Source: Eggerthellaceae bacterium
Lineage (GTDB): Bacteria > Actinomycetota > Coriobacteriia > Coriobacteriales > Eggerthellaceae
Assembly (NCBI GenBank): GCA_009782605.1
Contig: WRIR01000012.1
Span: 183 to 64,182 of the forward strand
DNA length: 64,000 bases
Direction: 5' to 3'
Below the pieces are notes generated by a model. That model saw only the letters and a list, made by a program, of their open reading frames with translations, had not been told where the DNA came from and searched no databases. Position numbers and translations under genes: made by a program. Numbering within the stretch: the stretch's first letter is position 1; each line of letters begins with the position of its first letter. Of this stretch, positions 217-55,333 are shown one piece after another.

Positions 217-345
217 TCCGGCCCCCTGTCACACGGCCCGCAATCCTGACCGCCCCGGTCCGCAGCCCGCGGCTTGTCCCCTTCTTCCTGGTCTTTCCCC
301 CCTCAAGCGAAATCTCTTTTCGCAGAGTTTGATGCTTGCGGTACA

Positions 346-1050: not shown

Positions 1051-1056
1051 GAACAC

Positions 1057-1929: not shown

Positions 1930-4167
<2,238 letters not shown>

Positions 4168-4287
4168 CCTCTCATTGCTCCCCCCACCGTCATCGCGGGC
4201 CTGACCCGCAATCTTCAAGCAAGGGATTCGGCAGGATTGCTGATCGAGGGCGTCCCCGTTGACACCCGTCCCCGTTGACACGCTCCC

Positions 4288-5535: not shown

Positions 5536-5841
5536 GTGGTGCACATCCCCTAGCCATGCGGTTTACATCGGTCGCATCGGTTCCATCATCCATCCGAATA
5601 TTTCCATTATATCACCATATCAGGGGATTTCCCGAAGGTTACCAAAAGGTAAGGGTATCGTCATCGAAAAATTATGTTGTCCATCGGGACCGCCGCAGAG
5701 GTGGAGTATAATAGCCAACGGACCAAAAGTCAGTTTTCAGATTTCCCCTCCATCGGCCGGGCCGCGTCTGAGCCCCCTGGCGCTGGAGGGATTTTGCCGA
5801 GAGGACGGAGCGTCGGGCGCGTGAGCGAGAAGAACCAGGAT

Positions 5842-7657: not shown

Positions 7658-10405
<2,748 letters not shown>

Positions 10406-10407
10406 TC

Positions 10408-20158: not shown

Positions 20159-20351
20159 ATAACGGACTCCTGAAAGCGGGTGCAATGCGTCCCATACTAC
20201 CATTACCGAGGGGAAATACCTTCATATTATTGACACTTTGCCGTGATTTTACGATGGCTACCTATTGCCAAATCCCCCATTCTTTCATACGATGATTTGG
20301 GTATTTTGTGAAGAAGGTATTGACGGGGGAAACCCCTCATTAAGGAGCGTG

Positions 20352-37620: not shown

Positions 37621-38865
37621 CTACCCTTTCGAGCTGCCCTCGATGATTCGGACGATGCTTTGGGCCAGGCTCCGCGCATTCCCTCCGTCGTTGAACGAGA
37701 CATACTTGGCGAGGAAGGCCTGTTGCTCTTGAGGGGAATGCCGTTCGTGGACAAGGGCTGCGACGAGGCTGCGGGCATCCCGGTGGATCCCCCCCGGCAT
37801 CTCGTGCGCGTAGTCGATGATAAGCCCACGCTCATGCTCGTACCTGTCGAGGTCGAATGCGAAGAAGTAGGTCGGCAGCCCCAAAAGCATGGACTCGAAG
37901 ATAAGCGAGGAGTAATCCGACACACAGGCCCAGGCGACCATGCCTATCTCGGTTGTTGAGAACCTCTTGTCGAACAGGACGCAGCTGCCCTGGCTGGCAG
38001 GCCCTTCCGTGGGGCTTTCGTAGGAATCCCCCGACTGATTCTTCCAGTTCTTCCGCTGCCTGGGATGGGGCTTGATAACCAGGGCATACTCGCCATGCTC
38101 CCGGTTTGCCTCGTTGACGGCCTCGACAAGCTCCCGGATCCTCCCGGGAAGCTCGTCGTTGTTCTTTCTCAATGTCGGGACATAGAGGATGACCTTCTTG
38201 TCCCGCAAGAAGGGGTAGGCTGCATAGACCGCCGAACGTGCCGCGCTTTTCGCTTCCTCGTCTTGGAGGAGGTCGACGCGGGGAAGGGCGCCGATAAGCG
38301 CCTCTTCGAGAGGGAGGGGGTGGGCCTTGCGGCCTTCGGAAGGGCTTTCTGTGTAGCCGAAGCACCGCAGCCGGGCATCCTTGGCGGCTTCCGAGCTTAC
38401 CAGGATATGGGTATACCCCTTGTGCATGGAAAGCACCCGGGCATTCTCCTTGCTCCAGCCTTCCTCGGTCCCGACCGCCGCATAGCCGATTTTCTTCATG
38501 AGCCCGAGGGCATGCCATATCTGTACGACCTTAAGGCCGCGCTTGTGGCTCAAGATGCTGATGGGGATGCAATAGGAGTCGAGTATGACGAGCCTTGACG
38601 TCGCAATATGGAACATCTGCACAAGCATGGCGGGAGCGTAGCGCAAAAGGCTGCCGAGGCCGCTGGAGAACCTCCGGCATTTTGTTGCGAACGCATAATC
38701 CGGCAACAGGGCTTCCAGCTCCGCCTGGAGCAAGGCAAAGTCCACAGAGGGGCCGTCTCCCAGTTTGCTTATGAATGTTATTTTCTTGCGCGTCGGAACC
38801 AGCTTCAAGAAGAAGTAGAGAAAACGCAAACAGGAGCATGCCGCCCTTATCCCTAAGGTAGACAT
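37621..38865 (-). CDS. CDP-glycerol glycerophosphotransferase family (TagB/TagF-like) protein
   Basis: Motifs: KKITFISK.G, VVQIWHALGLMKK.GY, ILYVPT.R, VIKPHP and VSDYSSLIFE..LLG.P..FFAFDLD.Y...RG. The start is uncertain; the ORF extends to 38952. Confidence 0.7.
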   Translation of the reverse strand: MSTLGIRAACSCLRFLYFFLKLVPTRKKITFISKLGDGPSVDFALLQAELEALLPDYAFATKCRRFSSGLGSLLRYAPAMLVQMFHIATSRLVILDSYCIPISILSHKRGLKVVQIWHALGLMKKIGYAAVGTEEGWSKENARVLSMHKGYTHILVSSEAAKDARLRCFGYTESPSEGRKAHPLPLEEALIGALPRVDLLQDEEAKSAARSAVYAAYPFLRDKKVILYVPTLRKNNDELPGRIRELVEAVNEANREHGEYALVIKPHPRQRKNWKNQSGDSYESPTEGPASQGSCVLFDKRFSTTEIGMVAWACVSDYSSLIFESMLLGLPTYFFAFDLDRYEHERGLIIDYAHEMPGGIHRDARSLVAALVHERHSPQEQQAFLAKYVSFNDGGNARSLAQSIVRIIEGSSKG

Positions 38866-39151
38866 GTCTCCAGCCCAGATCGAGCCCTTGCGCCGTTTCC
38901 AACAGTCGGTCTCATGAGCAAAGAATAGCACAAGGCACCCCGCGCCTCCCACCTCAAGGGAAAAATGGTTTTCAAGTGACTAACATTTTGGAAGGGGCGT
39001 GTTGTTGTACGATTTCCACAGGTGTAAAAACGGATAGGCGGGTCGGATGACCCAAGGGAAAATACCCCGGATTTGCCGATGAAGGACATATTGAAGACAG
39101 GCCGCACTTGAGGCTCCTCGCACAGGTCTCAGGTGTTTTGTCGGAGCAGGG

Positions 39152-40922: not shown

Positions 40923-43910
40923 ATGGAGTTTGTCATAATATCAGGCGGGAACGGCGGTTTTTGGGAAGCACGTCAGGGCATGCTCGGCCGTCCGGCCAAG
41001 ATCGACGGAGAGACGCTGCTACAAAGGACGGCACGGCTTATCGGGGACTGCAACCCTGGAGGCAGTATCACGGTCGTTGCGGAAAACGACCCGGGCGTGC
41101 CGGAGGGCAGCGCCTTTTACCGCCTGCAGCAAGGCAGCCTGGAGATCGACCGCCTCCCCTATGAGCTGATCGAGGACGATACCTGCTTCCTTTTCGGGGA
41201 TGTCTTCTACACGCGTCCGAGCATGCTCAAGCTCATGGCCATCCCGACAAGCGATGTGGCCTTCTTCGGGTCAAAGGAACAGATCCTCGCCATCAAGGTG
41301 CACGATGCAGAGGCAATGAGGGCGCACGTCGACAGCATAAAAGAACGCTACGCCCAAGGAGAGATAGGCAGCTGCGGCGAATGGCAGCTCTATCAGTCGT
41401 TCACGGACCTTCCTTTTGGGGAGGCTGCCATCGCAGAGAACTACTTCCTGCTGTCCGCGGGTACGCGAAGCATCAGCAGCATTGAGGACTACCAGCAGCT
41501 CAGGAAGGCCCACAAGCGCAAAGCCGCCGCAAGGAAGCGCAGGGCGAGGAAGAAGGGGCGCCGAGACACCATCGAGAGAACCAAGAAGTTTTTATGGAAG
41601 GTACTCTCATTCAAGTTAGTTTTAGAAGGCTTCTCTATACCTCAGGCATTAGAATGGACCCACCGGGTCTATAGCGACCTTAGATGGAACAGGAGTGCGT
41701 CGTTGCGTGCTAAGCTGTGGGCTTACCGTCGTGGTTTTTTACCTGCACAGGTAAAAAGACTCGGGGTTTCAAGGATAGAGGCAGGCGGGCTAATCTCAGA
41801 AAGAGACTATCGTTTCATCATGCCTATTAACGGCATTTACAATAAATGGCTCCACAGCTTTTTTTTGAGAAAATATCTGTTTACTCCTTTCTCCGATTAT
41901 TTTGTTGAATGCTATTACCAAATCGGAAATAGAGACGGTCGACGCCAATTCATTCTCCTGCCTGATTGCCCTCAAGGCTATGGCGAAAATGCTCAAGATG
42001 TTTTGCAGCTTATTAAAGACAAGGGTTCTGTTGTAATAAAAAGGCTATCAGGAAAGAGTTATAAGAAAACCTACCATGTAAGCTATATTGAAAACACCTA
42101 CTTTATGGATGCACGAGAAATAACAGCACAAGATTTGGAAGAGTTTATTTCTCGATGCAAATCAGGAATCCTCCGAATTTTCGAACACCTGGAGTCTTCC
42201 TCTGACCACATATTGAATGTACAACTGATTATTATTAATGAATCAGGAAACGACCCTATTATCAGTGATGCTTTTGTCTTATGCAAACAATTCAAAACTG
42301 CTGTAAATTTTGGAAACTTTGAAAAAAAGGATTCTTTAAGGACAACTCAACTGATTAGAGTTGACGCAGAAACAGGGCGATACTCTTATGAGGGAATAGC
42401 AGAAACCGTCCCCTACTACCAAGAGATTAAAGAACAGGTTCGACGGATATGTCTTTTTGCAGTTACCCTTGAATTCATGGGTATAGCAATTACTATCGCT
42501 GATAACAGTTTCAAAATTACCCGCATGACCGCCAAGCCAGAGTATAAGAATTCATATACTTTCAGCGAATCTTCCACTTCTTATCTCTTGTCAAAGCTGG
42601 AAAAAAAGAATGCGAGTAAAAAAGGATTTATAAAAAAATCGAAGCACATTCGTCGCCAAATTGTATTAAGAATCCGAAGAAGATACACGCGAGCTTTCTT
42701 TCCACCGGGAGTCTACCCTTTTGTAGGAGCACGATGGACTTCACTAATCCTCAGTGACTTATGGATAAACAAAGATGCCACACTGAAAGAAAAACTATGG
42801 GCATACAAAAACGGTTTTCTTTCTTATCGAATCAAGCAATACGGCATTACCAAAGAAAACCGATTGAACTATATATCGGATCTTGAATACTATTGGCTGC
42901 GCCACATCAATAAAAAAGTAAGGATTGTTCTTGAAGACAAGATAACACCTCGTTATATTCTCCGTGACTATAAAGAGTGTTTTCCTGCCTATTACTACTA
43001 CGTTGCCCCTAGGCGCGGGGAAAATCGTATTATGCCTATGATAGATTGCCCAAAAGGGTATTCAGGAAAATATAGCGATGTCTTAAGATTAGTTGCCGAA
43101 AAGGGTGTGCTCGCTCTCAAGCCAGCCCAAGGCTCTCATGGTGACGGCTTCTTCAAATTCTCCTATGAGAACAATAAATACTATCTGAACTCTGAAGAAG
43201 TCAATGAAGAACAAGTTGAAGCTCTCTTCAAAGATGTCGATAATAAATATCTTATCACCGAGTATATTCAAATGCATCCTGAGCTGAAAAAAATATACGA
43301 GGGAGCAGTAAATACCCTTCGAATAGTTGTGTTCAAAAAAGACGGGAAAACGCCCGAAATCGGCAATGCATATATGCGCATTGGATCCAGCAAAACCGGG
43401 ACAGTAGACAATATGAGTGCCGGCGGCATGTACGCACAAATTGATACCGACACCGGACGCTACCACAAAGCCAAGAGCATCGAGAACAACCAAATCCTGC
43501 CATGCGAGTATCACCCTGATACGGGAGTAAAAATCGAAGGCTACCTCCCTAATTGGAATCTAACAAAACAGCTGGTTCTCGATATAGCACAAAAAATGCC
43601 ATTTCTTGAATATTTTGGATTTGATGTTGCGATAACCGAAAATGGTATTAAACTTCCTGAAATCAATAGATTCCCCGACTATCCAAAAATTGAAACACTC
43701 TCTGAAAACACCATTGATTATCTCCTCTACAAGCTGGAGCAAAAAAAATTGCGAGTTCACTATAATAAGAAAAGGTCAATAAGGTTGTTCAATTTGCCCA
43801 AAAGACCATTCACAGAGGAAGAACCGGGAACCGACTATTTGTACGAACAAGAACATGAGAATCTCAATGAACTTGAAGAATACCCGGAAGGCCACGAATA
43901 CTCTATATAG
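40923..43910 (+). CDS. tri-module fusion: NTP-transferase-like domain + K/R-rich linker + two tandem sugar-transfer-associated ATP-grasp modules
   Basis: Residues 1-200 parallel ORF 40272. The linker reads KAHKRKAAARKRRARKKGRR. Both modules open with RWNRSASLRAKLWAYRRGF / LWINKDATLKEKLWAYKNGF. Only the second keeps VDNMSAGGMYAQIDTDTG and FGFDVAIT.NGIKLPEIN. Confidence 0.7.
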   Translation: MEFVIISGGNGGFWEARQGMLGRPAKIDGETLLQRTARLIGDCNPGGSITVVAENDPGVPEGSAFYRLQQGSLEIDRLPYELIEDDTCFLFGDVFYTRPSMLKLMAIPTSDVAFFGSKEQILAIKVHDAEAMRAHVDSIKERYAQGEIGSCGEWQLYQSFTDLPFGEAAIAENYFLLSAGTRSISSIEDYQQLRKAHKRKAAARKRRARKKGRRDTIERTKKFLWKVLSFKLVLEGFSIPQALEWTHRVYSDLRWNRSASLRAKLWAYRRGFLPAQVKRLGVSRIEAGGLISERDYRFIMPINGIYNKWLHSFFLRKYLFTPFSDYFVECYYQIGNRDGRRQFILLPDCPQGYGENAQDVLQLIKDKGSVVIKRLSGKSYKKTYHVSYIENTYFMDAREITAQDLEEFISRCKSGILRIFEHLESSSDHILNVQLIIINESGNDPIISDAFVLCKQFKTAVNFGNFEKKDSLRTTQLIRVDAETGRYSYEGIAETVPYYQEIKEQVRRICLFAVTLEFMGIAITIADNSFKITRMTAKPEYKNSYTFSESSTSYLLSKLEKKNASKKGFIKKSKHIRRQIVLRIRRRYTRAFFPPGVYPFVGARWTSLILSDLWINKDATLKEKLWAYKNGFLSYRIKQYGITKENRLNYISDLEYYWLRHINKKVRIVLEDKITPRYILRDYKECFPAYYYYVAPRRGENRIMPMIDCPKGYSGKYSDVLRLVAEKGVLALKPAQGSHGDGFFKFSYENNKYYLNSEEVNEEQVEALFKDVDNKYLITEYIQMHPELKKIYEGAVNTLRIVVFKKDGKTPEIGNAYMRIGSSKTGTVDNMSAGGMYAQIDTDTGRYHKAKSIENNQILPCEYHPDTGVKIEGYLPNWNLTKQLVLDIAQKMPFLEYFGFDVAITENGIKLPEINRFPDYPKIETLSENTIDYLLYKLEQKKLRVHYNKKRSIRLFNLPKRPFTEEEPGTDYLYEQEHENLNELEEYPEGHEYSI

Positions 43911-43924
43911 TACTATGCGTCGAA

Positions 43925-46375
43925 ATGGGGGATTTGAAATTGAAAAAGAGGTTTGGGAAAACTAAAGACTACAAATATATTCTAAGTGGTCGTAACGCAG
44001 AAATCACAGAGTATCTTGGTTCAGAAACGGTAGTAAACATACCGGAAACTTTAAACAACTCTATTGTGGCCGCAATAGGTGAACGAGCTTTTTACAATAA
44101 TGAAAGTGTTACAAAAGTTTTTATACCGGCTTCTGTAAGTGCTTTGAGAAAGGAAGCTTTTTCATGTTGTAAAAATTTAATTAAGATCAATATAGACAAC
44201 GGGCTTTCCACTATTTCCTCTTTTTGTTTTTCGAATTGCAGCGCTTTAGACGCAATTATATTGCCAAAATCAGTTACTACTATTTATCGAGGAGCCTTTC
44301 GTAACTGCGTCGCACTCAAAGAAATTGAAATCCCCGAAGGGATTACTGTTTTAAGCGCAGAGTTGTTTTATGGTTGTGAGCGATTGGAGCAAGTTGGACT
44401 GCCTTATGGACTAGAGCGAATATACTCAGGTGCTTTTCAGAATTGTTCGAAGCTTCATACTTTTTACCACTATGGTAAAAGAAATATCAACTCTATAATG
44501 GTTATTGATAAGAACCTCAAAGAGTATGAATTCCCAACACGAATTACCCATATTGGCAACAGCGCATTTGAAGATTGCATTTCTTTATCCCAAGCAAGAA
44601 TTCCCCATAGAGTCAGCATTATTGGTGAAGGAACTTTCAAGAATTGTAAAGCTTTGACTACTGTTTATACACATAATCTATTGAGAGAAATTAAAAACGA
44701 GGCATTTTATGGTTGTGAAAATTTGAAGGTAATTAAGCTTCCTGTTTTTACTAGAAAAATAGGGCGAAATGCGTTCAATAGCCTCACTTGTATCCATTGT
44801 GAAAAAGCAGCCTTCGCTGCAACTTATGCTTCTCGCAATTATCTATCATGCCGTTATATTGAAGAATCAGCACCGTCTCTTTTCAGTCATATGATTCCCG
44901 CACAAAGCAAACGGGCAAAACTGAATAACCATCCTCTGTTCTATACAGAACAAGACCTTCGAGAATGCCAAGAAAAATTCGAAATGCGTCCCCCTTCCTA
45001 TAAAAAATCAGAAAAATCCTTTCGAACAGCAGAAGCAATAGAATCTTCCCGATTCGACTATGCAAATGGCATGTATACCAACAAAAATAGATCACAAAAA
45101 AGTAGAGCAGTTATTATGATGGCGGGAGGCCTGCTTTGTGGAGCCCGACATCAGGAGACATCTTTTGATAGCGGCAAATATTTTTTTGATACGAACTTCC
45201 TCCTTATAAAGGATCTTTTGAAACAGTCTGACTTTGCCATAGCAACGCTCGAATCCATGGTGTCTCCTTCTGCTCCTCTAACTGCTGAAGTTGAGTATGT
45301 TAACACCGCAAAACATCACAATGCTCCGGAATCATACTTAGGTGCAATTAGAAAAGCTTCGTTCGATGCAGTGATAAACGCCCAAAACCATGCGTACGAT
45401 ACTGGTGTTCAAGGCATTTTTGAAACACTCGATATGCAAAATAGATATCAACTGATGCATACCGGTGTTTTTGCCAGCACAGAGGATAAGCGATACCTTT
45501 TCCTTGAAATAAATGGCATTCGCATAGCTTGCTTGTCTTACCTTGATAGCGCAAAAGGGAGATTAAAGAAAGTGAATTTTAGCAGAATCGGACGAGAAAC
45601 CCTCCTTAATTATCTCAACAGTGACGAAGCAGAAAAAACACAAATAGGTCAAGATGTTGCAAATGCAAAGGCCGAAGGCGCAGAATTTATCATTGCTTTC
45701 TGTCATTGGGGAAAAGAGTATTCCCAGCAATTAACCGAGCGCCAGCTGCTCTTTAGCCAACAGGTCGCAGATGCTGGGGTTGATTACATTTTTGGTTCTC
45801 ATTCGCATTGCGTTCAACCTTACGATGTCATTACAGCAAGTGATGGTCGTCGAGTTCCGGTTTATTATTCGGCAGGAAGCCTAATATCGGATATCAGTGT
45901 GCGGCTTCCTATCACACGAGATGCCCTTATTGGTGAGCTGATATTGAAGAGAGACGAAGACGGACAAGTAACTATTGAACGTGAAGGATATTATCCTTGC
46001 AGAGTCGTGAATCTTGAAGAAGATGAGATAAACTACATGGTTGTTCCTACAGCCATGCAATTTGAAGAACGCACGCTCAGAAACAAACGCTTGGCTGATG
46101 CTGAGGGGCGAATAAAAAGAGCAGTAGGAACCAAGATAAACGAAAGAATCCCCCAGGAGATTCCTTTACTAATTAGCGAGCTAGCAATCCACAAAACCCC
46201 TGAATCCGAATTCGACATTGCAGAGGTAGCAAAACTTTTAGATGTCGAGTTTATAAAGAATAACGCCAACACAAAACTTAGCAACCTCACATACAGGATT
46301 AATAGTATAGACGAACACTCCGTTTTTGTTGGACTTCGCATAAAAGAACAAGAGCTCGATAGCACTAGTTCCTAG
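43925..46375 (+). CDS. BspA-type leucine-rich-repeat (LRR_5) + CapA/PGA_cap metallophosphatase-like fusion protein, no signal peptide
   Basis: The LRR units are of the type IGERAFYN...LRKEAFSCCKNL...ISSFCFSNCSAL...IYRGAFRNCVAL. The CapA blocks are ATLESMV, INAQNHAYD, AFCHWGKEY and FGSHSHCVQP. Confidence 0.75.
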   Translation: MGDLKLKKRFGKTKDYKYILSGRNAEITEYLGSETVVNIPETLNNSIVAAIGERAFYNNESVTKVFIPASVSALRKEAFSCCKNLIKINIDNGLSTISSFCFSNCSALDAIILPKSVTTIYRGAFRNCVALKEIEIPEGITVLSAELFYGCERLEQVGLPYGLERIYSGAFQNCSKLHTFYHYGKRNINSIMVIDKNLKEYEFPTRITHIGNSAFEDCISLSQARIPHRVSIIGEGTFKNCKALTTVYTHNLLREIKNEAFYGCENLKVIKLPVFTRKIGRNAFNSLTCIHCEKAAFAATYASRNYLSCRYIEESAPSLFSHMIPAQSKRAKLNNHPLFYTEQDLRECQEKFEMRPPSYKKSEKSFRTAEAIESSRFDYANGMYTNKNRSQKSRAVIMMAGGLLCGARHQETSFDSGKYFFDTNFLLIKDLLKQSDFAIATLESMVSPSAPLTAEVEYVNTAKHHNAPESYLGAIRKASFDAVINAQNHAYDTGVQGIFETLDMQNRYQLMHTGVFASTEDKRYLFLEINGIRIACLSYLDSAKGRLKKVNFSRIGRETLLNYLNSDEAEKTQIGQDVANAKAEGAEFIIAFCHWGKEYSQQLTERQLLFSQQVADAGVDYIFGSHSHCVQPYDVITASDGRRVPVYYSAGSLISDISVRLPITRDALIGELILKRDEDGQVTIEREGYYPCRVVNLEEDEINYMVVPTAMQFEERTLRNKRLADAEGRIKRAVGTKINERIPQEIPLLISELAIHKTPESEFDIAEVAKLLDVEFIKNNANTKLSNLTYRINSIDEHSVFVGLRIKEQELDSTSS

Positions 46376-46380
46376 AATCA

Positions 46381-46405
46381 AAGTAATCAACACAGCTGAT
46401 TACTT
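46381..46405 (+). terminator. AT-rich 9-bp hairpin between the two LRR-CapA paralogues (weak terminator/processing site candidate)
   Basis: aagtaatca (46381-46389) pairs with tgattactt (46397-46405) across a 7-nt loop. There is no strong T-run. Confidence 0.3.
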
Positions 46406-46458
46406 TAAGAGAGGGCAGTCAAGGAAAACAATTGTGGAACACAAGGGAGCGGCAGAGT

Positions 46459-49400
46459 ATGACCGGAACTAATCATGAAGCCAGGTCAAGAACAGAACAG
46501 GAACTAGGAGATAAGAAATTGGGCGTGGTTAAGGAAACAGAAAACTACAGGTTTACTGTGCTTGGTCACAGTGCAGAGATTCTTGAATATGTTGGTTCGA
46601 AAACATGTGTAGACATACCGGAAATCCTAGGTGACTGCACCGTTACTTCAATAGGCGAACGCGCCTTTTACAACACAGCTATCATCAAGGTAACCACACC
46701 AGACTCAGTAGTAGCGCTGGGAAAGGAAGCTTTTTCGTGCTGTAGAAACCTTGTCGAAATAAACATCAACACGAGCCTTACTACAATATCCTCTTTTTGC
46801 TTTTCAAGTTGTAGTGCCTTAAAAAAAGTGACTCTTCCAGAATCACTTACCACTCTTCATGAAGCAGCCTTCTATAATTGCAGCAATCTTGAAGAAGTTG
46901 AAATTCCGAGAGGAATTGCCGTCTTAAATGCAGAACTTTTTTTTGGCTGCGAAAAACTAAAGCAAATCGGGCTGCCCCATAACTTGAATCGGATATGCTC
47001 CGAAGTCTTTAAAAACTGTTCTAATCTCGAAAACTTTTACTATTGCAGCATACCAACCACCAAGCACATCATGATGAGTGCAAATCAAAAGAAAAGGACA
47101 TACGAGCTTCCTGATCACATCAGCCATATAGGAAAAAACGCATTTGAAAACTGCGCTTCTTTAAGAAAAATAAGAATACCTTATAAAGTAAGCATAATAA
47201 ATGAAGGGGTTTTTAAGAACTGCACAGTTTTAGCAAAAGTTCATGTGCATAGCTCATTAAAAGAGATAAAAAATGAAGCTTTTTATGGCTGTGAAAATTT
47301 GGAGGAGATTAAACTTCCGGGTTTTACAAAAAAAATTGGAGACAATGTATTTAGCCGAAAAACAGAAATTCTCTGCGAGGGAGAAGATTTTGGTGCAATA
47401 TATGCTGCTCAAAATGCTTTGCCATGTCGGTATATTGTGAAAACAACACCACCGCTCTCAAGCCATATGATTCCTTCTCAAAACGAACAGGTCAATCTCA
47501 GTGATTGCACCTCCTTTTATACGGAGGAAGACTTAAGAAAATGTGTAGAGAAATTTGAAATGCGCCCTCCTTCCTATGAGTACATTCAAAGGTCTAATAT
47601 GGCTGTTGAAGAAGAAATAGCTTCTTCTCGATTTGTTTATAAAGAAGGCAAATACATCAATAAAAATCGAACAGCCGAAGGTAGAGCAACAATCATGATG
47701 ACCGGAGATCTGATGGCTCTTCCTAGATATCAAGGGTTTTCGAGCAAAGCCGATCGATACATTTTTGATAGTAGTTTTCATTTTGTTAAGGATATTTTGC
47801 AACAGTCGGACTTTGCGATTGGAAATCTAGAATCTTTAGTAGCTCCCTCTGCGCCCCTGATGATTGAGACTGAATATGTTGATGGTGTCCTCCACCTGAA
47901 CGCTCCGGAATCATATTTAAGAGCTATAAAAGAAGCTTCTTTCGATGCTGTTATTAACGCACAAAACCACATTTATGATGCCGGTGTTCGAGGAATTTTT
48001 GAAACACTTGATATGCAAAATAAGTACCAATTAATGCACACCGGCGCTTTTGTCGGTAATGAGGACAAAAGATATTTAATGCTTGAGATAAATGGAATTA
48101 GAATAGCTTGCGTATCATATTTTGATCTCGCAAGGCAACCAACGAGGAGCGTGAATTTTACAAATATTGGAAAGCAAACTCTTTTTAGTCTTCTAGGTAT
48201 TCAAGAAACAGTATTACAGCAAATTACACAAGACATTGAGGATGCAAAAGCAGAAGGCGCTGAATTTATCATTGCTTTTTGTCACTGGGGAAAAGAATAT
48301 ACAAACGAATTGACAGACCGACAAATTCTCTTCAGTAAAACCATTGCAAAAGCCGGAGCAAACTATATTTTCGGGTCTCACCCACACTGTGTGCAGCCCT
48401 ATGATGTTATTACAACTGATGATGGGAGAAGTGTCCCGGTTTTTTATTCGGCAGGAAATTTTATGTCTGACAGTAGTGCGTGGTCGTCTGTTAGCAGAGA
48501 TACCATTATTGGAGAATTGGTTCTAAGGAAAGATGAAAGCAAGGGCGTATACATTGAAAGTAGCGGGTACTACCCTTGTAAAATAATGAATCTCGAAAAA
48601 GATTCCTTCACCTATACCGTTATTCCAACTGCTATGAAATTCGAAGGGAGCCCAGCCAAAAATAAATATTTATCAGACGCTGAAATAAAAATAGAAAAAA
48701 ATATAGGAGCAAAGATAAAAAAATTAATTCCTCAAGGAATAGTCCTAACGGTAATCAAAAAATCACAGGCAAAAGGCGATAGCGAAGCTTATCACAAGAC
48801 AAAACACTTAAAGACTGGAGATGATAGCCTTGTGTTTACCATCGAAGAGCTTTGTTATCTATTAAAAATAGAATTGCCGAAACAATATCAAGAGAATAGT
48901 AGTTTTTTTGTGACTCAGACATCTTTGTTCAATAGATTGGAAAACAAAGAAAAACTATTGAGAGAAATAAAGGAAACAGAAGATTACTGCTATCATCATT
49001 ATGAAGAAATCAAAGCTAACGCCGCACAGTTTAAGAATCATTACTGTGGCGTAGGGAATACAAGAAAAACTGAAACTGAGTTACTGGAAATGTTTGTTGA
49101 ATGGATTTATATTTTCAGGCCCTTAGGCTTTTATCCCGATGACTATTTTAATTATGAGCTATATGATAAGACGATTACAGAAGCTAATGAATTTATTAGT
49201 GGTGAATACAGAAGGAAAATTGCAAAAGTATGCAGAAATAATTCGTATTTAAAATACTTTCTTAACAAAGTTTTTTTCCTTAAAACTTTCAGCAGATATG
49301 TAAAACGCGACTATTTAGATACGACCTCATGCACCTTGAGCGAATTTAAAGCATTTACCGAAAAAAATCCTCAATTTTTCGGTAAACCAATCCTGGGTTC

Positions 49401-50013
49401 CGGTGGTCACAATTCCGGTATTTTTGAATCGAACGACAATGATATACAACTGCTTCAGAAATGCAAAAAGGAGAAACTGATTGTTGAAGAAATTGTTAGG
49501 CAACACGAAAGTTTGGCTGCATTTAATAAAAGTACCTTAAACACAATAAGAATATATACTTTGCTAACAGCCAATAATGAGGCTATTGTAATGCTCGCCG
49601 GAGCTCGTTTTGGAAGAGCAAGTGCTGTAGTTGACAATTTTCATAGCGGCGGTCTAACGGCTGGTGTTGATATTCTTACGGGCATGGTTGTCACTGACGC
49701 CATAAATAGAGACCATGTTCGATACTCCGTACATCCAGATTCTTTATTGGAATTTCGAGGGTTTCAGGTTCCTTGCTGGAATCAGGCAATAGAGACTGTA
49801 AAAGAATCGGCGAAACAGATGCCCCATGTTAGACATGTAGGATGGGATGTCGCCATAACTAATCAAAATGAAATCGAACTTATCGAAGGAAATTCATTAC
49901 CAAACTTTGATATTACGCAAGCAGTAGATCAGATTGGGAAGAAGTACCTTTATGAAGAACATATTAACGAACTGGAAGCTGTTGCAAAGAAGAAAGACTC
50001 GAAAAGAAAGTAG
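46459..50013 (+). CDS. BspA-type LRR + CapA/PGA_cap + sugar-transfer-associated ATP-grasp triple fusion protein
   Basis: AAGGGAG lies 9 nt before ATG 46459; the track ORF opens with TTG at 46432. The LRR and CapA parts look about 60-70% identical by eye to ORF 43925. The C-terminal ATP-grasp has FFGKPILGSGG, NTIRIYTL, VDNFHSGGLTAGVDILTG and VGWDVAITNQNEIELIEGNS. Confidence 0.75.
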   Translation: MTGTNHEARSRTEQELGDKKLGVVKETENYRFTVLGHSAEILEYVGSKTCVDIPEILGDCTVTSIGERAFYNTAIIKVTTPDSVVALGKEAFSCCRNLVEININTSLTTISSFCFSSCSALKKVTLPESLTTLHEAAFYNCSNLEEVEIPRGIAVLNAELFFGCEKLKQIGLPHNLNRICSEVFKNCSNLENFYYCSIPTTKHIMMSANQKKRTYELPDHISHIGKNAFENCASLRKIRIPYKVSIINEGVFKNCTVLAKVHVHSSLKEIKNEAFYGCENLEEIKLPGFTKKIGDNVFSRKTEILCEGEDFGAIYAAQNALPCRYIVKTTPPLSSHMIPSQNEQVNLSDCTSFYTEEDLRKCVEKFEMRPPSYEYIQRSNMAVEEEIASSRFVYKEGKYINKNRTAEGRATIMMTGDLMALPRYQGFSSKADRYIFDSSFHFVKDILQQSDFAIGNLESLVAPSAPLMIETEYVDGVLHLNAPESYLRAIKEASFDAVINAQNHIYDAGVRGIFETLDMQNKYQLMHTGAFVGNEDKRYLMLEINGIRIACVSYFDLARQPTRSVNFTNIGKQTLFSLLGIQETVLQQITQDIEDAKAEGAEFIIAFCHWGKEYTNELTDRQILFSKTIAKAGANYIFGSHPHCVQPYDVITTDDGRSVPVFYSAGNFMSDSSAWSSVSRDTIIGELVLRKDESKGVYIESSGYYPCKIMNLEKDSFTYTVIPTAMKFEGSPAKNKYLSDAEIKIEKNIGAKIKKLIPQGIVLTVIKKSQAKGDSEAYHKTKHLKTGDDSLVFTIEELCYLLKIELPKQYQENSSFFVTQTSLFNRLENKEKLLREIKETEDYCYHHYEEIKANAAQFKNHYCGVGNTRKTETELLEMFVEWIYIFRPLGFYPDDYFNYELYDKTITEANEFISGEYRRKIAKVCRNNSYLKYFLNKVFFLKTFSRYVKRDYLDTTSCTLSEFKAFTEKNPQFFGKPILGSGGHNSGIFESNDNDIQLLQKCKKEKLIVEEIVRQHESLAAFNKSTLNTIRIYTLLTANNEAIVMLAGARFGRASAVVDNFHSGGLTAGVDILTGMVVTDAINRDHVRYSVHPDSLLEFRGFQVPCWNQAIETVKESAKQMPHVRHVGWDVAITNQNEIELIEGNSLPNFDITQAVDQIGKKYLYEEHINELEAVAKKKDSKRK

Positions 50014-50203
50014 TGTACAAATAAAGACGCCGCCCTAAAATCGAGCGATATTGTTCTCAAAGATGATACAATTCTTGCTAAAGTTCCATGGAATGAGTTT
50101 TATTGAAATCATCTGCTTTTTGGAAAAGCCATAAAGAACCCACGCTTATCTCCCGTTGGTTATCTAAATACATGTAATTACTAAAAGATAAGAAATCTGG
50201 AAA

Positions 50204-50293
50204 ATGTTTAAAAATAATGAACCTGACTTTGATATTGAAGCAATTGCCGAATTGCTCAATACTCGACTAGGGGGTTTGATAAGAAAGGCTTGA
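50204..50293 (+). CDS. 29-codon ORFlet abutting the next gene (possible gene remnant)
   Basis: MFKNNEPDFDIEAIAELLNTRLGGLIRKA*. Its TGA (50291-50293) is immediately followed by the ATG ATG of ORF 50294. No SD is seen. Confidence 0.15.
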   Translation: MFKNNEPDFDIEAIAELLNTRLGGLIRKA

Positions 50294-52750
50294 ATGATGC
50301 GTGATTTTATACACCAAGGTGAAATCAGCATACGCTACATACTTCGCAAAGCTGCCGCGCCTTCCGATATTCTTGTCGTCACGTTTCCCGGTGCACATGG
50401 ATGGCGGGAAAATGCCATGCCGCATTTGGGGTATGCCTATTTGAACGCCATTGCTTCCTTCAATGTCAACGGACTCTTTCTTAAGGGAGGCATTGAAGAA
50501 GAGGCGAGCACCCTTGGGCGCATGGTCTGTGTTAATCGCGATTTCAAGGTTGAACGTACAGTAGTCGAGCTCATCAACAGAGCAAAAGAGGAAACCGGCA
50601 GTACCCGCGTTATTGCTATTGGTTCAAGTATGGGCGGATGGTGCAGCGCATACTATGGGCTGAAGTATGGGTATGATGTTATCTCGGGTTCACCAGCGTA
50701 TGAGTTCAAAAGCGATCAAAGCGTGGAATTCGTTGCAGGGGGCACCAGTGAGGAAGATTATGGGTTTTGTAACTCCCTTATGCCCAATGTCATAAAGAAT
50801 GCGGGAGCGGACGGCTACGACAAGTTTTTTTTCATCTCGTGGGGAGAGGGCGAGGGGAACTGGGTACGAAAGGAGCATGGCCCCCAATTTCTTGCAGCTT
50901 TAGATGAGGCGAGCATTAAATACAAGCATAAGCTGCATAGCTTCTCTTCTCACTGGGCTGTTCATTGGTTATTTCCAGATGTCTTAACTCGACAGCTTTC
51001 AGCCGCACTTGGACTACCGGTAAGCGAAGAACAAGAGGCGTTAACGGATTTACAAAAAGCAAGCACAGAGATTAAAAAAATGAAAGAAACCCTCAAAGCG
51101 GAAATTGACGCTCTTGATGGGTCCGCGCCGAACTACAGCAATGCTTACATTGTAGGCTATGGCAGTAATAGCCGCGACATACAGCTCCGTACCTTCGTTT
51201 ATGGAGCGCAGGGATATCATTGGTGGCGAAGAGGGGAGGGGCAAGAGAAAGCCTACAATATTGGTCCTCTTGACGTATTCTGGGGATCAGCCACCGTCAT
51301 AAACGAGGACTATGCTACATCTTTTTGGTTTCATCAGACACTGCTTAATTTCTATAAAACCGAAGGAAACCAAGATGCGTGGGAGCTGCTCGATAAAAGT
51401 ACACGCCAGTTTTTCTACCAAGTTGATGCGGTTGCGAAAGTGGCGAAGACATATAACAGTTGGTGGACGGCAGTACGCCGGATGCATTTCTTCCTTGATT
51501 GGGCGAATGTGCTTGATGGCCATAACGTGCCGGACGGCATTACTGCCCAAGTAACCGATACGCTCAATATCCTCCTCGATATACAGCTGGCCATAAACTT
51601 CAATGCGACGAATCAATATCGTGTCCTTCTTGCCTTGACTCATGCAACACAGTATTTCCGGAACAGTGCAGCTTTTTTTGAAAAAGCATCCATGGCGGAG
51701 CTTCATGGTTTTGCGGCATTGAATAGCTATTACTTTGACAAGAATGGGATATGTGTGTTTCAGCAAGTGCGTGCCCAACACGCACTGCGCACACAGGTTA
51801 ACGTGCTTATCGAGTTCATAGTCGGGAATGAGTTTTCTCATGACCCAATAATGAAGAAAATCAAACGGCATGCAGAGAAAATTGAAAACGCGACCAGGCA
51901 CCTCATACGTCCCAACGGGCAAATACCGAATCTTGGACATACTGTCGGGGGGAAAACCAAGCTGGCACGTTCAGGTGGAAACCTCATCTTGCCGACATCC
52001 AATCTGGCAATACTCGATGAAGAGGGAACATACATCACCATCAACAGCGGCAACCCGTGCCATTCGGCGTACAAGCATTGCGACTTGCTCTCGTTCACGT
52101 TCTTCTATGATGGGCGCCTGCTTGTTGCAGATGCGGGCGGCGGTGTCGGCGCACTTGCGGATTTTTCGTGCTCCGCGATAGCGCACTCAGCGTTGATCTG
52201 CGACGACAGCGATTACGTCATTCCTGAGTACAGCGATTTCACCACAATCGATGCGGTTTCAGAACATGAGGACTATGTCTTGCTCGGGATGTCGCACCGG
52301 CTGTATCCGGATGTGGAGCTGCGCCGTGCCTTTTTGTGGCTCAAGCCGAATATCGTGATCCTGCTTGACTCTGCCGAGTCCGGCACAGAACATGCCTACG
52401 TGCAGAACTTCTTGCTCGAAAAGGATGCCCAGCAATTCCTGTCGATCACGCAACAGGGCAACAGCTGCGACCTCGAAACCTTCACTGGCACAACGGATGC
52501 CGACGATTACGAGCACCTGCGCGGCTCGATTATCTCCAACCTTAAGAAGCCTGCGCGGGCCATGAACCTTGCATACACGCAGAAGGGCACGTCGGCAAGC
52601 TATGTGACCGTGCTTGAGGCCCACAGCGGCAAAGAGGGTGAGATCGCCATCAAGTCTGTGCAGGTTGACGGTGGAAATGTTAAGATAACGCCCGTCAAGG
52701 GCAGCACAAAAGTAATCCCCCTTGATGTCGAGGCGGGTCAGTTGATATGA
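50294..52750 (+). CDS. alpha/beta-hydrolase-like N-terminal domain fused to heparinase II/III-like (alpha/alpha toroid + beta-sandwich) domain
   Basis: N-terminus ILVVTFPGAHGW...VIAIGSSMGGWCSAYYGLKYG (GxSxG nucleophile elbow, reminiscent of Asp2). C-terminus HSAYKHCDLLSFTFFYDGRLLVADAGG......AHSALICDD, typical of heparinase II/III family proteins. Confidence 0.6.
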   Translation: MMRDFIHQGEISIRYILRKAAAPSDILVVTFPGAHGWRENAMPHLGYAYLNAIASFNVNGLFLKGGIEEEASTLGRMVCVNRDFKVERTVVELINRAKEETGSTRVIAIGSSMGGWCSAYYGLKYGYDVISGSPAYEFKSDQSVEFVAGGTSEEDYGFCNSLMPNVIKNAGADGYDKFFFISWGEGEGNWVRKEHGPQFLAALDEASIKYKHKLHSFSSHWAVHWLFPDVLTRQLSAALGLPVSEEQEALTDLQKASTEIKKMKETLKAEIDALDGSAPNYSNAYIVGYGSNSRDIQLRTFVYGAQGYHWWRRGEGQEKAYNIGPLDVFWGSATVINEDYATSFWFHQTLLNFYKTEGNQDAWELLDKSTRQFFYQVDAVAKVAKTYNSWWTAVRRMHFFLDWANVLDGHNVPDGITAQVTDTLNILLDIQLAINFNATNQYRVLLALTHATQYFRNSAAFFEKASMAELHGFAALNSYYFDKNGICVFQQVRAQHALRTQVNVLIEFIVGNEFSHDPIMKKIKRHAEKIENATRHLIRPNGQIPNLGHTVGGKTKLARSGGNLILPTSNLAILDEEGTYITINSGNPCHSAYKHCDLLSFTFFYDGRLLVADAGGGVGALADFSCSAIAHSALICDDSDYVIPEYSDFTTIDAVSEHEDYVLLGMSHRLYPDVELRRAFLWLKPNIVILLDSAESGTEHAYVQNFLLEKDAQQFLSITQQGNSCDLETFTGTTDADDYEHLRGSIISNLKKPARAMNLAYTQKGTSASYVTVLEAHSGKEGEIAIKSVQVDGGNVKITPVKGSTKVIPLDVEAGQLI

Positions 52751-52765: not shown

Positions 52766-53584
52766 ATGCTCTACAAGGTCAGTGTTAACCAATCCATCCT
52801 CGATTTGTTGTCCGTTCGGCATGTCTTGATGCTGAGCAGCAGGTATCATCGCGACATCAGCATCAAGATCGGGGATACGGTGGTCTTTGCAGACGACCTT
52901 GAGGTATACCCCTATACCACGTTCATGGCGGGAAATGCGCTCTTCAGCATGGGCTCTTTCAGTTACTCGCGCTCAGAGCTCGGCGGGGACGCGGGCAGGA
53001 ACAACGTGCAGCAGGTCCAGGTCGGGCGCTACTGCTCGATAGCCGACAACGTGCGGGTCTTCCAAGGCAACCACCGCATGGACGCATACACTACCAGCAG
53101 CTTCATTTACGCATTCCCCGGCTTCCGGCACGAGACGTGGCATGTCAGGGAAAGGGCGAAGGAAAAAGGGATCGAAAGGCCGGCTGCCCTCGCATTGGGG
53201 GATGACGATGTTTGCCAGACCGTAAGAATCGGCAACGATGTCTGGATCGGCTCCCATGTGGCATTGAAGCCGGGCATACGCATCGGCGACGGTTCCTGCA
53301 TCGGCACGGGGGCGCTTGTTACCAAGGATGTGCCGCCCTATGCGATAGTTGCAGGCGTGCCCGCCAAGGTTGTCAAGTACCGTTTCGATGACAGCGTGAT
53401 AGAGCAGCTGCTCGCGCTCAGGTGGTGGGACTACGACTTTTTAGACTTCGCCGTGCACCCCGAAGAGCCGATAGACGCTTTTATCAAGGCAGTGAAAGAG
53501 CAGGTAGAGAGCAACAAGATACTGCCGTACAGCTCGGACCCGATACGGGCAAAGGACATACTGGGATTAAGGAGTGGCACATAA
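52766..53584 (+). CDS. hexapeptide-repeat acyltransferase of the xenobiotic acyltransferase (XAT; Vat/CatB-like) class
   Basis: Motifs: GNHRMDAYTTSSF, VRIGNDVWIGSHVALKPGIRIGDGSCIGTGALVTKDVPPYAIVAGVPAKVVKYRF and LLALRWWDY. Confidence 0.8.
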   Translation: MLYKVSVNQSILDLLSVRHVLMLSSRYHRDISIKIGDTVVFADDLEVYPYTTFMAGNALFSMGSFSYSRSELGGDAGRNNVQQVQVGRYCSIADNVRVFQGNHRMDAYTTSSFIYAFPGFRHETWHVRERAKEKGIERPAALALGDDDVCQTVRIGNDVWIGSHVALKPGIRIGDGSCIGTGALVTKDVPPYAIVAGVPAKVVKYRFDDSVIEQLLALRWWDYDFLDFAVHPEEPIDAFIKAVKEQVESNKILPYSSDPIRAKDILGLRSGT

Positions 53585-53821: not shown

Positions 53822-55333
53822 ATGCCGGTGCTGAAGTCCGTGACGCAGTGGCTTGATGCCACGGCAGAGAGGCTGCCCGACAAGGTCGCGTTCGGCGAGG
53901 ACAAGGCAGGGACGTTGACCTTTGCGCAGCTGCGCGGCGCTTCGCGTGCAACGGGCACGTTCTTGGCGAAACGGGGAATAAACAAGCAGCCGGTTCTGGT
54001 TGCCCTGGGTAAGACTCCGCAGTGCGTAGCGGCGATGCTCGGGGCAGCATATGCCAACTGCCCGTATACGCCGCTGGATGTTGACATGCCGCCAGGGCGC
54101 ATCCGCAAGGTTATCGACACCCTGCAACCGGCCGCCTGTATCACGGATGCCAAGCACGAGCAGCTGATGCTTGAAAGTGGGTTGGCGCAGGACAGCATCC
54201 TGCTCTACGAGTGCGTATCGAACACCCCCATAGACGAAGATGCTTTGGCAGACGTCCATGAAAGGCGTATCAGCACAGACTTGCTGTACATCCCTTTCAC
54301 CAGCGGCTCTACGGGTGCGCCGAAAGGCGTTGCGGTAAGCAACGGCAACGTGATCGACTACACGCCCCAGGCTGCCGAGAAGTTCGGCTTTAACGATGAG
54401 ACGGTTTTCGGGCAAAGCGTGCCTTTTGTTTTCGACGGCTCTATACTCTACGTCTACCAGACGCTGCTGAACGGCTGCACGGATTGGATAATCTCGAAAG
54501 TCGACCTGATGTTCGCTGCAAAGACGGTGGACTTCCTTAACAGGCACCGGTGCAACACGGTTTACATGATGCCGACCCTCTACAGCATAATTGCGAAAAG
54601 CGGCATATTGAACAAATCCAAGCCTGAGTATCTGCAAAAGTGCCTATTCGTGGGAGAGGTGATGCCCAATAGCGTGTTGAACATATGGCGGCGAGCATTG
54701 CCGAAGGCGACATTTGCGAACCTGTTCGGGCCCACGGAGGCAACAACCTTTTTATGCTATGTCGTCGACCGCGACTTCACCGACGAAGAGCCTTTGCCTA
54801 TCGGGACGCCGTATGAAAACAACGAAGTCTTGCTATTGGACGAGAACGGCACCGAGACGAAACGCGGCGAGGTGGGCGAGATGTGCGTTAGGGGGGCAAA
54901 AGTGACGCAGGGGTACTACAACGACCCCGAAAGGTCGGCCGCAGTGTTCGTGCAGAACCCCTTGAACAGGGCATACCGCGAGACAATCTACAGGACAGGC
55001 GACTTTGCATACCTCAATGAGCAGGGCGAGTACATGTTCATGGGGCGCAAGGACTTCCAGGTAAAGCTCGCGGGGCACCGTATCGAGCTCGGGGAGGTCG
55101 AAGTTCAGGCAATGGCAATGCCTGGGGTGGAGCTCTGCGCCTGCGTGCTCGATGAGGAGGCACAAAGACTTGTGTTGTTCTATGTCGGAGAGGCCGGGCA
55201 AAAGGAGCTGAGGGACGAACTGAAGCGCAAGCTGCAGGGCTATATGGTTCCCGCGCAGATAACGTCGATCGATGCCATGCCCAGGACAGGCAGCGGCAAG
55301 ATAGACAGGATCGCTTTGAAAGAGGCCCTTTGA
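53822..55333 (+). CDS. DltA-like amino acid--carrier protein ligase (adenylate-forming enzyme)
   Basis: 503 aa. Motifs: LLYIPFTSGSTGAPKGV, FGPTE, YRTGD, GRKDFQVKLAGHRIELGEVE and PRTGSGKIDR. Confidence 0.8.
   Translation: MPVLKSVTQWLDATAERLPDKVAFGEDKAGTLTFAQLRGASRATGTFLAKRGINKQPVLVALGKTPQCVAAMLGAAYANCPYTPLDVDMPPGRIRKVIDTLQPAACITDAKHEQLMLESGLAQDSILLYECVSNTPIDEDALADVHERRISTDLLYIPFTSGSTGAPKGVAVSNGNVIDYTPQAAEKFGFNDETVFGQSVPFVFDGSILYVYQTLLNGCTDWIISKVDLMFAAKTVDFLNRHRCNTVYMMPTLYSIIAKSGILNKSKPEYLQKCLFVGEVMPNSVLNIWRRALPKATFANLFGPTEATTFLCYVVDRDFTDEEPLPIGTPYENNEVLLLDENGTETKRGEVGEMCVRGAKVTQGYYNDPERSAAVFVQNPLNRAYRETIYRTGDFAYLNEQGEYMFMGRKDFQVKLAGHRIELGEVEVQAMAMPGVELCACVLDEEAQRLVLFYVGEAGQKELRDELKRKLQGYMVPAQITSIDAMPRTGSGKIDRIALKEAL

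Follow-up and report, generated by a model that had tools for sequence, protein, structure and literature searches.

A leucine-rich repeat protein from an Eggerthellaceae genome joins a CapA/MslH-like PGA_cap module to an ATPgrasp_ST ligase within a probable teichoic-acid-type gene cluster

The window analysed here is a stretch of 64,000 nucleotides from contig WRIR01000012.1 of a gut Eggerthellaceae bacterium (GenBank assembly GCA_009782605.1). Our subject is one of its genes, hereafter the target, whose product joins a BspA-type leucine-rich repeat (LRR) domain, a PGA_cap module of the CapA family and an ATPgrasp_ST ligase (Table 1). The target belongs to a co-directional run of genes extending from the standalone ATPgrasp_ST gene at 39152 through the DltA-like gene. 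Its open reading frame (ORF) is unbroken over 1184 codons plus a stop; the longest version of the frame opens at a TTG (46432), and the ATG at 46459 is preceded by an AAGGGAG Shine-Dalgarno sequence 9 nt to its 5' side. The exact protein is public at NCBI as 'leucine-rich repeat protein [Eggerthellaceae bacterium]'. An identical 1184-aa gene is called on ERZ27257299:k141_1505090, an ENA contig that matches the window at 100% identity across 22.4 kb and probably derives from the same data, while a JGI contig from a different sample (3300042604) covers the final ~260 codons at 99.66% identity and ungapped. There is no sign of the frameshift that the preliminary description of this locus had raised as a concern, and truly independent support is limited to the C-terminal part. 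A promoter and terminator scan was uninformative, its signals reaching shuffle expectation or exceeding it only modestly.

Table 1. Positions of the target gene, its domains and its neighbours in the window
Feature	Position	Strand and placement	Support or remark
Target gene: LRR_5 - PGA_cap/MslH-like - ATPgrasp_ST, 1184 aa	46459..50013	(+)	NCBI MCL1799228.1
BspA-type LRR_5 domain, ~residues 22-330	46522..47448	(+)	Pfam LRR_5 at residues 63-191 and a second stretch, E 2.4e-54; regular beta-strand ladder in model
PGA_cap/MslH-like calcineurin-fold module, residues 388-768	47620..48762	(+)	Pfam core at residues 411-671, E 1.3e-53, 182.5 bits against a cut-off of 27, profile positions 1-254 of 255; Foldseek; PDB sequence match
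Disordered fusion linker, residues 769-789, SQAKGDSEAYHKTKHLKTGDD	48763..48825	(+)	pLDDT below 50
Complete ATPgrasp_ST ligase module, residues 790-1184	48826..50010	(+)	Pfam core (PF14397) at residues 929-1160, E 2.2e-45, 155.5 bits against a cut-off of 31.4; alignments; Foldseek
TagF-like, CDP-glycerol glycerophosphotransferase family	37621..38952	(-), divergent, upstream	Pfam Glyphos_transf E 2.5e-44
Standalone ATPgrasp_ST ligase, 354 aa	39152..40216	(+)	third ligase subfamily
IspD/MobA-like nucleoside triphosphate (NTP)-transferase, 212 aa	40272..40910	(+)	conserved partner in related clusters
NTP-transferase-like N-domain + degenerate ATP-grasp + intact ATPgrasp_ST, 995 aa	40923..43910	(+)	
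LRR_5 + PGA_cap paralogue, 816 aa, no ligase	43925..46375	(+)	
Heparinase II/III-like, 818 aa	50294..52750	(+), co-directional, downstream of target	
Hexapeptide acyltransferase	52766..53584	(+)	
DltC-like carrier, 77 aa	53584..53817	(+)	phosphopantetheine carrier motif GVIDSLD
DltA-like adenylating enzyme	53822..55333	(+)	

The preliminary description had read the target as a single polypeptide of LRR, CapA/PGA_cap and ATP-grasp domains. Pfam scores, confident AlphaFold models and Foldseek bear this out, hidden Markov model and structure searches agreeing that the C-terminal domain is an ATP-grasp and the middle domain CapA/MslH-like. All of the motifs quoted at that time (IMMTGDLM, GNLESLV, NAQNH, CHWGKEY, GSHPHCVQP, VDNFHSGGLTAGVDILTG and ELIEGNS) are found in the target. 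AlphaFold2 modelled the full-length protein with a predicted local distance difference test score (pLDDT) of 92.0 and a predicted template modelling score (pTM) of 0.78, and residues 340-1184 with a pLDDT of 88.8 and a pTM of 0.72. Values of pLDDT below 50 are confined to residues 769-789, both termini and a short loop at 203-205. Residues 769-789 connect two units, LRR-PGA_cap and ATPgrasp_ST, each of them complete; ATPgrasp_ST proteins that occur on their own, ~416 aa long, cover 96-98% of target residues 780-1184 and start just past the linker.

No membrane segment was detected in the target by a Kyte-Doolittle scan with 19-residue windows, nor does it have a signal-peptide-like N-terminus; the protein is cytoplasmic. 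The preliminary description had set this against a membrane-anchored CapA-like gene elsewhere in the window (4288-5544, minus strand), and the hydrophobicity scan agrees for both proteins. That second gene scores 200 bits with PGA_cap, has an N-terminal hydrophobic anchor, and is an orphan between ligA and an isocitrate dehydrogenase gene; neither CapB nor CapC accompanies it. Taking the database annotation at face value, the target would be a BspA-like LRR surface protein or adhesin; its NCBI name and the LRR_5 matches to the full-length protein, thousands of which are giant surface proteins, point that way. This reading is ruled out by the lack of a signal peptide, transmembrane segment and wall anchor, two thirds of the protein moreover being enzyme modules with intact active sites, and we give it practically no credence. 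The LRR_5 domain may instead serve as a docking or scaffold domain.

The ATP-grasp module has the residues expected of an active ligase. Among 27 family members, K976, E1010, R1050, D1059/N1060, D1130, E1143 and N1145 are invariant and match by position the ATP- and Mg-binding signature of ATP-grasp enzymes; K976, E1010, D1130, E1143 and N1145 are invariant in both alignments A2 and A3. An extra helical region of ~140 residues precedes the core at its N-terminal side. The module has no sequence relative in the PDB at E <= 1, and the model for RimK-related alpha-L-glutamate ligases (TIGR02291) scores 38.9 bits on the target against a cut-off of 314.2. The Foldseek matches in the PDB that rank after MslH (see below) are ArgX, Ddl, BacD, TTLL6, RimK, glutathione synthetase (GshB) and PsnB. 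The definition of the ATPgrasp_ST family reportedly goes back to the amidoligase paper of Iyer et al. 2009.

The middle module resembles MslH more closely than any other protein of known structure. The top four Foldseek matches in the PDB are all MslH entries (8gqb, 8ith, 8gq9 and 8itg; E ~3e-14, and 2.5e-14 at the top), with the 437-residue Foldseek target covered in full and a template modelling (TM) score of 0.52, normalised to the Foldseek target. MslH is also the sole PDB sequence match of the module with a single-sequence query, and the profile of alignment A4 finds it at E 7e-20, followed more weakly by the nucleotidase YfkN (3gve) at E 4e-7. Nine candidate catalytic residues of the target (D417, E458, N503, H504, D507, H609, E613, H641 and H643) occupy columns of A4 that are invariant or nearly so, namely an Asp, a Glu, an Asn-His..Asp, the HWGxE motif and the H-x-H motif. 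Mutagenesis of MslH showed that Asp11, Glu44, Asn87, His88, Asp91, His259, His261 and His295 are all required, and it was proposed that two His/Asp dyads remove and return the alpha-proton of the C-terminal residue, the carboxylate being held on a single Ca(II) (PMC10406935). In the target, Asp11 corresponds to D417, Glu44 to E458, Asn87/His88 to N503/H504, Asp91 to D507, His259 to H609 and His295 to H643, so that both MslH-type dyads are found (H504/D507 and H643/D417). By analogy, the best-supported chemistry for the PGA_cap module would be an MslH-like epimerisation at a residue bearing a free carboxylate. Genetic data on the polyglutamate system point in the same direction: Bacillus subtilis without pgsA still makes polyglutamate, with its D/L ratio changed from 75/25 to 5/95 (PMC6029982), which fits the same epimerase role for CapA itself.

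The calcineurin-like fold of this module could also belong to a metallophosphoesterase or hydrolase that strips phosphate or nucleotide from a precursor, or edits mis-ligated products, while the ATP-grasp module ligates. The YfkN profile match is in keeping with such an activity, as are Foldseek matches to 5'-nucleotidases and 2',3'-cyclic phosphodiesterases (3ive, 5eqv and 3jyf) at E ~1e-7, and the haloacid dehalogenase (HAD) phosphatases and NTP-transferases of related clusters would lead one to expect phosphorylated intermediates. However, the dimetal phosphoesterase motifs are degraded in the target as they are in MslH (D-x-H to D-L-M, and GD..D to GNLE), MslH is by far the best match in both sequence and structure, and the PgsA genetics favour a stereochemical role. 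We consider a phosphoesterase or hydrolase rather unlikely.

Relatives were collected from a set of 5.8 billion proteins and by exhaustive search of 1.84 billion representatives, and their domains were classed with phmmer. The full-length query was swamped by LRR_5 surface proteins, and the search was repeated without the LRR. In the 90% clustering of the protein set MCL1799228.1 is represented by a 225-aa fragment, which is why the target is not listed as its own match. PGA_cap and ATPgrasp_ST occur together in at least 37 proteins and in seven domain orders. Writing PGA for PGA_cap and GRASP for ATPgrasp_ST, the order of the target, LRR-PGA-GRASP, is found in P0002, P0126, P0128 and P0246; the others are GRASP-LRR-PGA, GRASP-LRR-PGA-GRASP, PGA-LRR-GRASP, PGA-GRASP, GRASP-PGA and GRASP-PGA-LRR. 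Fused and unfused forms are intermixed in several clades of a neighbour-joining ordering of the PGA_cap domains. Moreover, the ligase of the target has its orthologue (42%) in the N-terminal ligase of P0001, which means that these modules have been put together in differing orders. The ligase is also exchanged for others: the LRR-PGA_cap core stands alone in P0003, P0004 and others, carries a RimK-type ATP-grasp in P0008 and a Mur ligase in P0007, P0130, P0133 and P0140-145, and is combined with both an ATP-grasp and a Mur ligase in P0001 (1785 aa). The Mur module of P0001 is MurF-like (TIGR01143, 301 bits against a cut-off of 288.6), and no PgsB-type model is among the matches of the fused Mur-fold domains.

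The author of the preliminary description knew of no described CapA-ATP-grasp fusion. As regards the literature this stands, since searches on ATPgrasp_ST/PF14397, on PGA_cap with ATP-grasp and on teichoic acid with ATP-grasp found nothing relevant; the architecture is nevertheless not unique and recurs in metagenomes and in GenBank metagenome-assembled genomes (MAGs). The target and several relatives are in public databases, unnamed or named for the LRR only. The component families are known and the pairing of a ligase with PGA_cap has a precedent in PgsB-PgsA; it is the recurrent multi-ligase gene set that is undescribed.

Related loci were then sought in one genome per GTDB species. The search pattern was derived from a tight alignment, two broader ones being too divergent; an earlier genome scan with the single target protein as query gave no match. 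The scan returned 78 ATPgrasp_ST loci, every one from uncultured MAGs, mostly gut or rumen Bacilli (labelled 'Tenericutes'), Oscillospiraceae, Acutalibacteraceae and Eubacterium. PGA_cap lies within 10 kb of ATPgrasp_ST in 13 of the 78 by tblastn, and in seven of the nine closest loci by an ORF-level search. Fusion genes are present in GenBank MAG loci (L017, 1507 aa; L058, 1172 aa; L068, 1625 aa; and L012, a MurF-LRR-GRASP fusion). Two PGA_cap/ATP-grasp fusions stand side by side in the metagenomic cluster L091, at 263-4957 (GRASP-LRR-PGA-GRASP, 1564 aa) and 8658-12014 (LRR-PGA-GRASP, 1118 aa). That PGA_cap and ATPgrasp_ST have been fused repeatedly and in independent arrangements, and that their neighbourhood is conserved, makes it very likely that the two work one after the other on a common substrate.

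What surrounds this PGA_cap/ATPgrasp_ST cassette appears to be of teichoic-acid type. TagF-like, NTP-transferase, TagO-like or TagGH-like genes accompany it in the window and in L003, L005, L008, L012-L016 and L090, with TagO-like and TagGH-like genes in L003, L005, L008 and L090, and the linkage of the cassette to TagF and a small NTP-transferase spans Coriobacteriia, Bacilli and Clostridia. For example, TagO-like and TagGH-like genes lie around the cassette in L003 and L004, and L008, from a spore-former, has TagO, GpsA, TagF, four ATPgrasp_ST genes, a standalone PGA_cap, TagGH and a HAD gene. In L005, an Eggerthellaceae MAG, TagGH-like genes and an Asp/Glu racemase occur with LRR-PGA_cap and ATPgrasp_ST-LRR as separate neighbours, the latter ligase being more distant (27% identical to that of the target). 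Genes for Ddl and MurF-LRR are found in L001 and L090. Cytoplasmic LRR_5 domains are fused to various cluster enzymes (MurF-LRR, ATP-grasp-LRR, PGA_cap-LRR) in L001, L005, L012, L016, L064 and L090. It is unusual for the BspA-type repeat to be used inside the cell in this way, and LRR_5 may be a docking module that these enzymes have in common.

In the window, the three intact ATP-grasp ligases are only 27-31% identical to one another and 65-75% identical to their counterparts elsewhere. A degenerate fourth lies in the 995-aa protein, where Pfam recognised only the final ATPgrasp_ST and missed the middle part; by profile-profile comparison this part is an ATP-grasp (hhalign 94%) without the VDNFHSGG and ELIEGN motifs. 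The locus holds two PGA_cap modules, one in the target and one in the 816-aa paralogue, which is 55-60% identical to it. In the paralogue, Gly402 (IMMAGGLL) replaces the equivalent of MslH Asp11, an Asp kept in 124 of 125 aligned PGA_cap domains. A Gly at this essential position implies that the paralogue may be catalytically inactive or altered. No CapC/PgsC or PgsB/CapB-type gene is present in the target locus, where the neighbours are ATP-grasp ligases, the TagF-like gene, the NTP-transferase and others; the locus is probably a teichoic-acid-type cluster, and is not a polyglutamate capsule operon. The target lies in a low-GC island (~41600-50400) that has 37-40% GC, against 64% for positions 1-38000 of the window. 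The left edge of the island falls within ORF 40923-43910, directly after the NTP-transferase-like N-domain, and homologous clusters in other MAGs (L003 and L005) have ~40-46% GC throughout, which suggests recombinational replacement in a variable wall-polymer locus.

Several further features of the window and its relatives can be recorded here. A DltA-/DltC-like pair lies downstream with no DltB or DltD near it; the block of hexapeptide acyltransferase, DltC- and DltA-type genes adjoins LRR-PGA_cap in L005 too, where it is trailed by the Asp/Glu racemase and a PGA_cap-GDSL lipase fusion. The heparinase II/III-like gene, which has no signal peptide, adjoins the cassette in L005 and L007 as well; it would place a lyase- or epimerase-like fold in the cytoplasm, within a wall-polymer cluster. 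Outside the cluster, the window has a gene of the GCS2-type glutamate-cysteine ligase family (18812-20203, minus strand), a molybdopterin oxidoreductase (58145-60556, minus strand) and an arginine biosynthesis block (argJ, argB, argD-like, argG and argH) at 21.3-29.4 kb. The oxidoreductase is in keeping with an assignment to Eggerthellaceae. An anti-phage defence system was considered and rejected, as neither the target nor four neighbours had a PADLOC match.

The presence of several ligases per cluster, of MurF-like and Ddl partners in relatives, of a fusion between a ligase and an NTP-transferase-like domain, and of linkage to TagF-, TagO- and TagGH-like genes together point to a short peptide that is built stepwise on a soluble precursor. 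We postulate, at roughly even odds and from sequence and predicted structure, that the target is a bifunctional enzyme, soluble and cytoplasmic, in a pathway of several ligases by which such a peptide is attached to a teichoic-acid-type wall-polymer precursor, probably nucleotide-activated. We infer the epimerase chemistry, substrates, order of steps and role of the LRR as follows. The C-terminal ATPgrasp_ST module would use ATP to turn a carboxylate into an acyl-phosphate, which would be joined to an amine with the addition of one amino acid. The PGA_cap module, a one-metal calcineurin-fold domain like MslH, would then bind the new C-terminal carboxylate and invert the C-alpha from L to D, and the next ligase would extend this D-configured end. 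LRR_5 would dock the target to partner ligases or to a common acceptor, and the product would be handed on by the TagF-like transferase and then exported. In its logic the pathway would be analogous to the synthesis of UDP-MurNAc-peptide.

The preliminary description had instead suggested an ATP-grasp analogue of the CapB-CapA pair. The pairing of PGA_cap with an amide ligase is upheld by the fusions, the closest loci and the Mur- and RimK-fused relatives; the likeness fails in that the Mur partners are MurF-like and not CapB/PgsB, CapC/PgsC is missing, and the locus is one of TagF and NTP-transferase genes with three divergent ligases. The target may share the CapB-CapA logic, in which an amide ligase works with a PGA_cap epimerase and the fold of the ligase is interchangeable, with a stepwise hetero-peptide rather than a homopolymer capsule as the product. 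RimK makes poly-alpha-glutamate and PgsB makes poly-gamma-glutamate. In a stricter form of the CapB-CapA analogy, the target would be a self-contained poly-amino-acid synthetase, its ATP-grasp polymerising a single amino acid and its CapA-like module acting as in PgsBCA, to yield a polyglutamate-like chain, possibly on a teichoic-acid-type polymer as in teichuronopeptide. Such a synthetase would account for the rank of RimK, TTLL6 and LysX/ArgX among the best structural matches, for the weak similarity to TIGR02291 and for the membership of PGA_cap in the CapA family, and P0008 does bear a RimK-type ATP-grasp in place of ATPgrasp_ST. We nonetheless find it unlikely. The ligases of a cluster number three to five, diverge from one another and are each conserved between loci, the MurF-like and Ddl partners of relatives imply defined and different additions, no PgsB- or PgsC-type gene is present, and the TIGR02291 score lies far under its cut-off.

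It is also conceivable that the teichoic-acid genes are mere neighbours, and that the system modifies proteins or peptides at their C-terminus, in the manner of RimK, TTL and MslH, or makes a small diffusible peptide, with the LRR recognising the substrate. Peptide or protein C-termini are what the nearest characterised relatives of both modules (MslH, RimK, TTLL6 and LysX/ArgX) act on, LRRs are classic modules for binding proteins, and the DltA/DltC-like pair with an acyltransferase lies downstream. Yet the cassette is tied to TagF and a small NTP-transferase across distant taxa, often with TagO- or TagGH-like genes, one ligase is fused straight to an NTP-transferase-like domain, and no conserved small precursor gene was seen in the clusters; we hold this explanation to be quite improbable.

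Several observations weigh against the assembly of a peptide on a wall-polymer precursor as postulated above. First, the resemblance to MslH is incomplete: His261 has no clear equivalent in the target, which has HWG in place of HxH, identity between the two proteins is only ~15%, and the NCBIfam equivalog model for MslH (NF038314) scores 30.9 bits on the target against a cut-off of 700. In addition, the catalytic residues are kept across the entire PGA_cap family, so that they cannot tell an epimerase apart from an enzyme with some other metal-dependent activity. Second, both the ATPgrasp_ST members and the PGA_cap subfamily of the target are known from sequence. Lastly, the window has no adjacent TagO-like, TagGH-like, Ddl or MurF genes, the TagF-like gene and the NTP-transferase-like genes being the only adjacent ones of the teichoic-acid set, and the low-GC island is a recent mosaic whose genes may not be fully integrated with those flanking it.

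For decades it has not been clear what CapA/PgsA does biochemically. A PGA_cap protein that is soluble and naturally fused to a ligase offers a tractable model for the epimerase hypothesis raised by MslH and by the stereochemistry of the pgsA deletion. Likewise, the fusion and the cassette give testable predictions of chemistry for ATPgrasp_ST, a large family that abounds in bacteria of the gut and rumen and has no characterised member. Should peptides built by ligases and containing D-amino acids prove to decorate the wall polymers of gut Coriobacteriia, Bacilli and Clostridia, this would be a new class of surface structure, of relevance to host recognition, phage adsorption and antibiotic action. 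As a bolder extension, possible but on the doubtful side, these clusters might constitute a second, Mur-independent stem-peptide pathway, in which soluble ATP-grasp ligases held together by cytoplasmic LRRs, joined in some lineages by MurF-like and Ddl enzymes, build a defined peptide on a nucleotide-activated teichoic-acid unit and PGA_cap epimerases make the D-residues on the chain. The implication, were this true, is that the disputed role of CapA/PgsA would be settled as the epimerase of polyglutamate synthesis; peptides ending in D-Ala-D-Ala could furthermore be cross-linked into peptidoglycan by transpeptidases, a new route of wall-polymer attachment.

Among known systems, PgsBCA/CapBCA resembles the target in having a PGA_cap protein with the same metal and catalytic residues, functionally paired with an ATP-dependent amide ligase, and PgsA sets the D/L content of the product (PMC6029982), consistent with the ligase-plus-epimerase logic proposed here. 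The target differs in that its ligase is an ATP-grasp instead of the Mur-fold PgsB and is covalently fused to the PGA_cap module, and there is neither a membrane anchor nor PgsC; its locus is probably of teichoic-acid type, with several different ligases, and the Mur-fold ligases of relatives are MurF-like. MslH, which epimerises the C-terminal Trp of a lasso peptide (PDB 8GQ9; PMC10406935), shares with the target module a soluble, single-metal calcineurin-like site. Unlike MslH, the target module is fused to an LRR and a ligase, and it has no context of a RiPP (a ribosomal peptide with post-translational modifications) and no MslB1-type partner. The RimK, LysX-ArgX, Ddl and glutathione synthetase class has the fold and the ATP- and Mg-binding residues in common with the ligase module, as well as the expected acyl-phosphate chemistry on a carboxylate that is often C-terminal; the target belongs by contrast to the uncharacterised ATPgrasp_ST family (PF14397), with its extra N-terminal region.

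A close parallel to the proposed pathway is the assembly of the peptidoglycan stem peptide by MurC-F, Ddl and racemases, where soluble ATP-dependent ligases likewise add residue by residue onto a carboxylate and D-residues are incorporated. In cyanophycin synthetase, too, a single protein unites an ATP-grasp with a Mur-fold ligase, and the relatives described here mix ATP-grasp, MurF-like and Ddl ligases. In contrast to the stem-peptide pathway, the proposed one would rely mostly on ATP-grasp ligases, set the D-configuration on the chain through PGA_cap rather than by racemases acting on free amino acids, carry LRRs on its enzymes, and build on what is probably a teichoic-acid-type unit instead of UDP-MurNAc. 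An anionic glycopolymer and a peptide part make up one wall polymer in the teichuronopeptide of Bacillus halodurans, in whose synthesis an ATP-grasp protein (TupA-like, PF14305) is implicated; this is a different ATP-grasp family from that of the target, and no PGA_cap fusion is known to have been described for it. Teichuronopeptide and the TupA-like ATP-grasp are mentioned in PMC4431377 and PMC8153356. Finally, BspA-type surface proteins have the LRR_5 repeats in common with the target, but not the secretion signal or anchoring that place those proteins at the cell surface.

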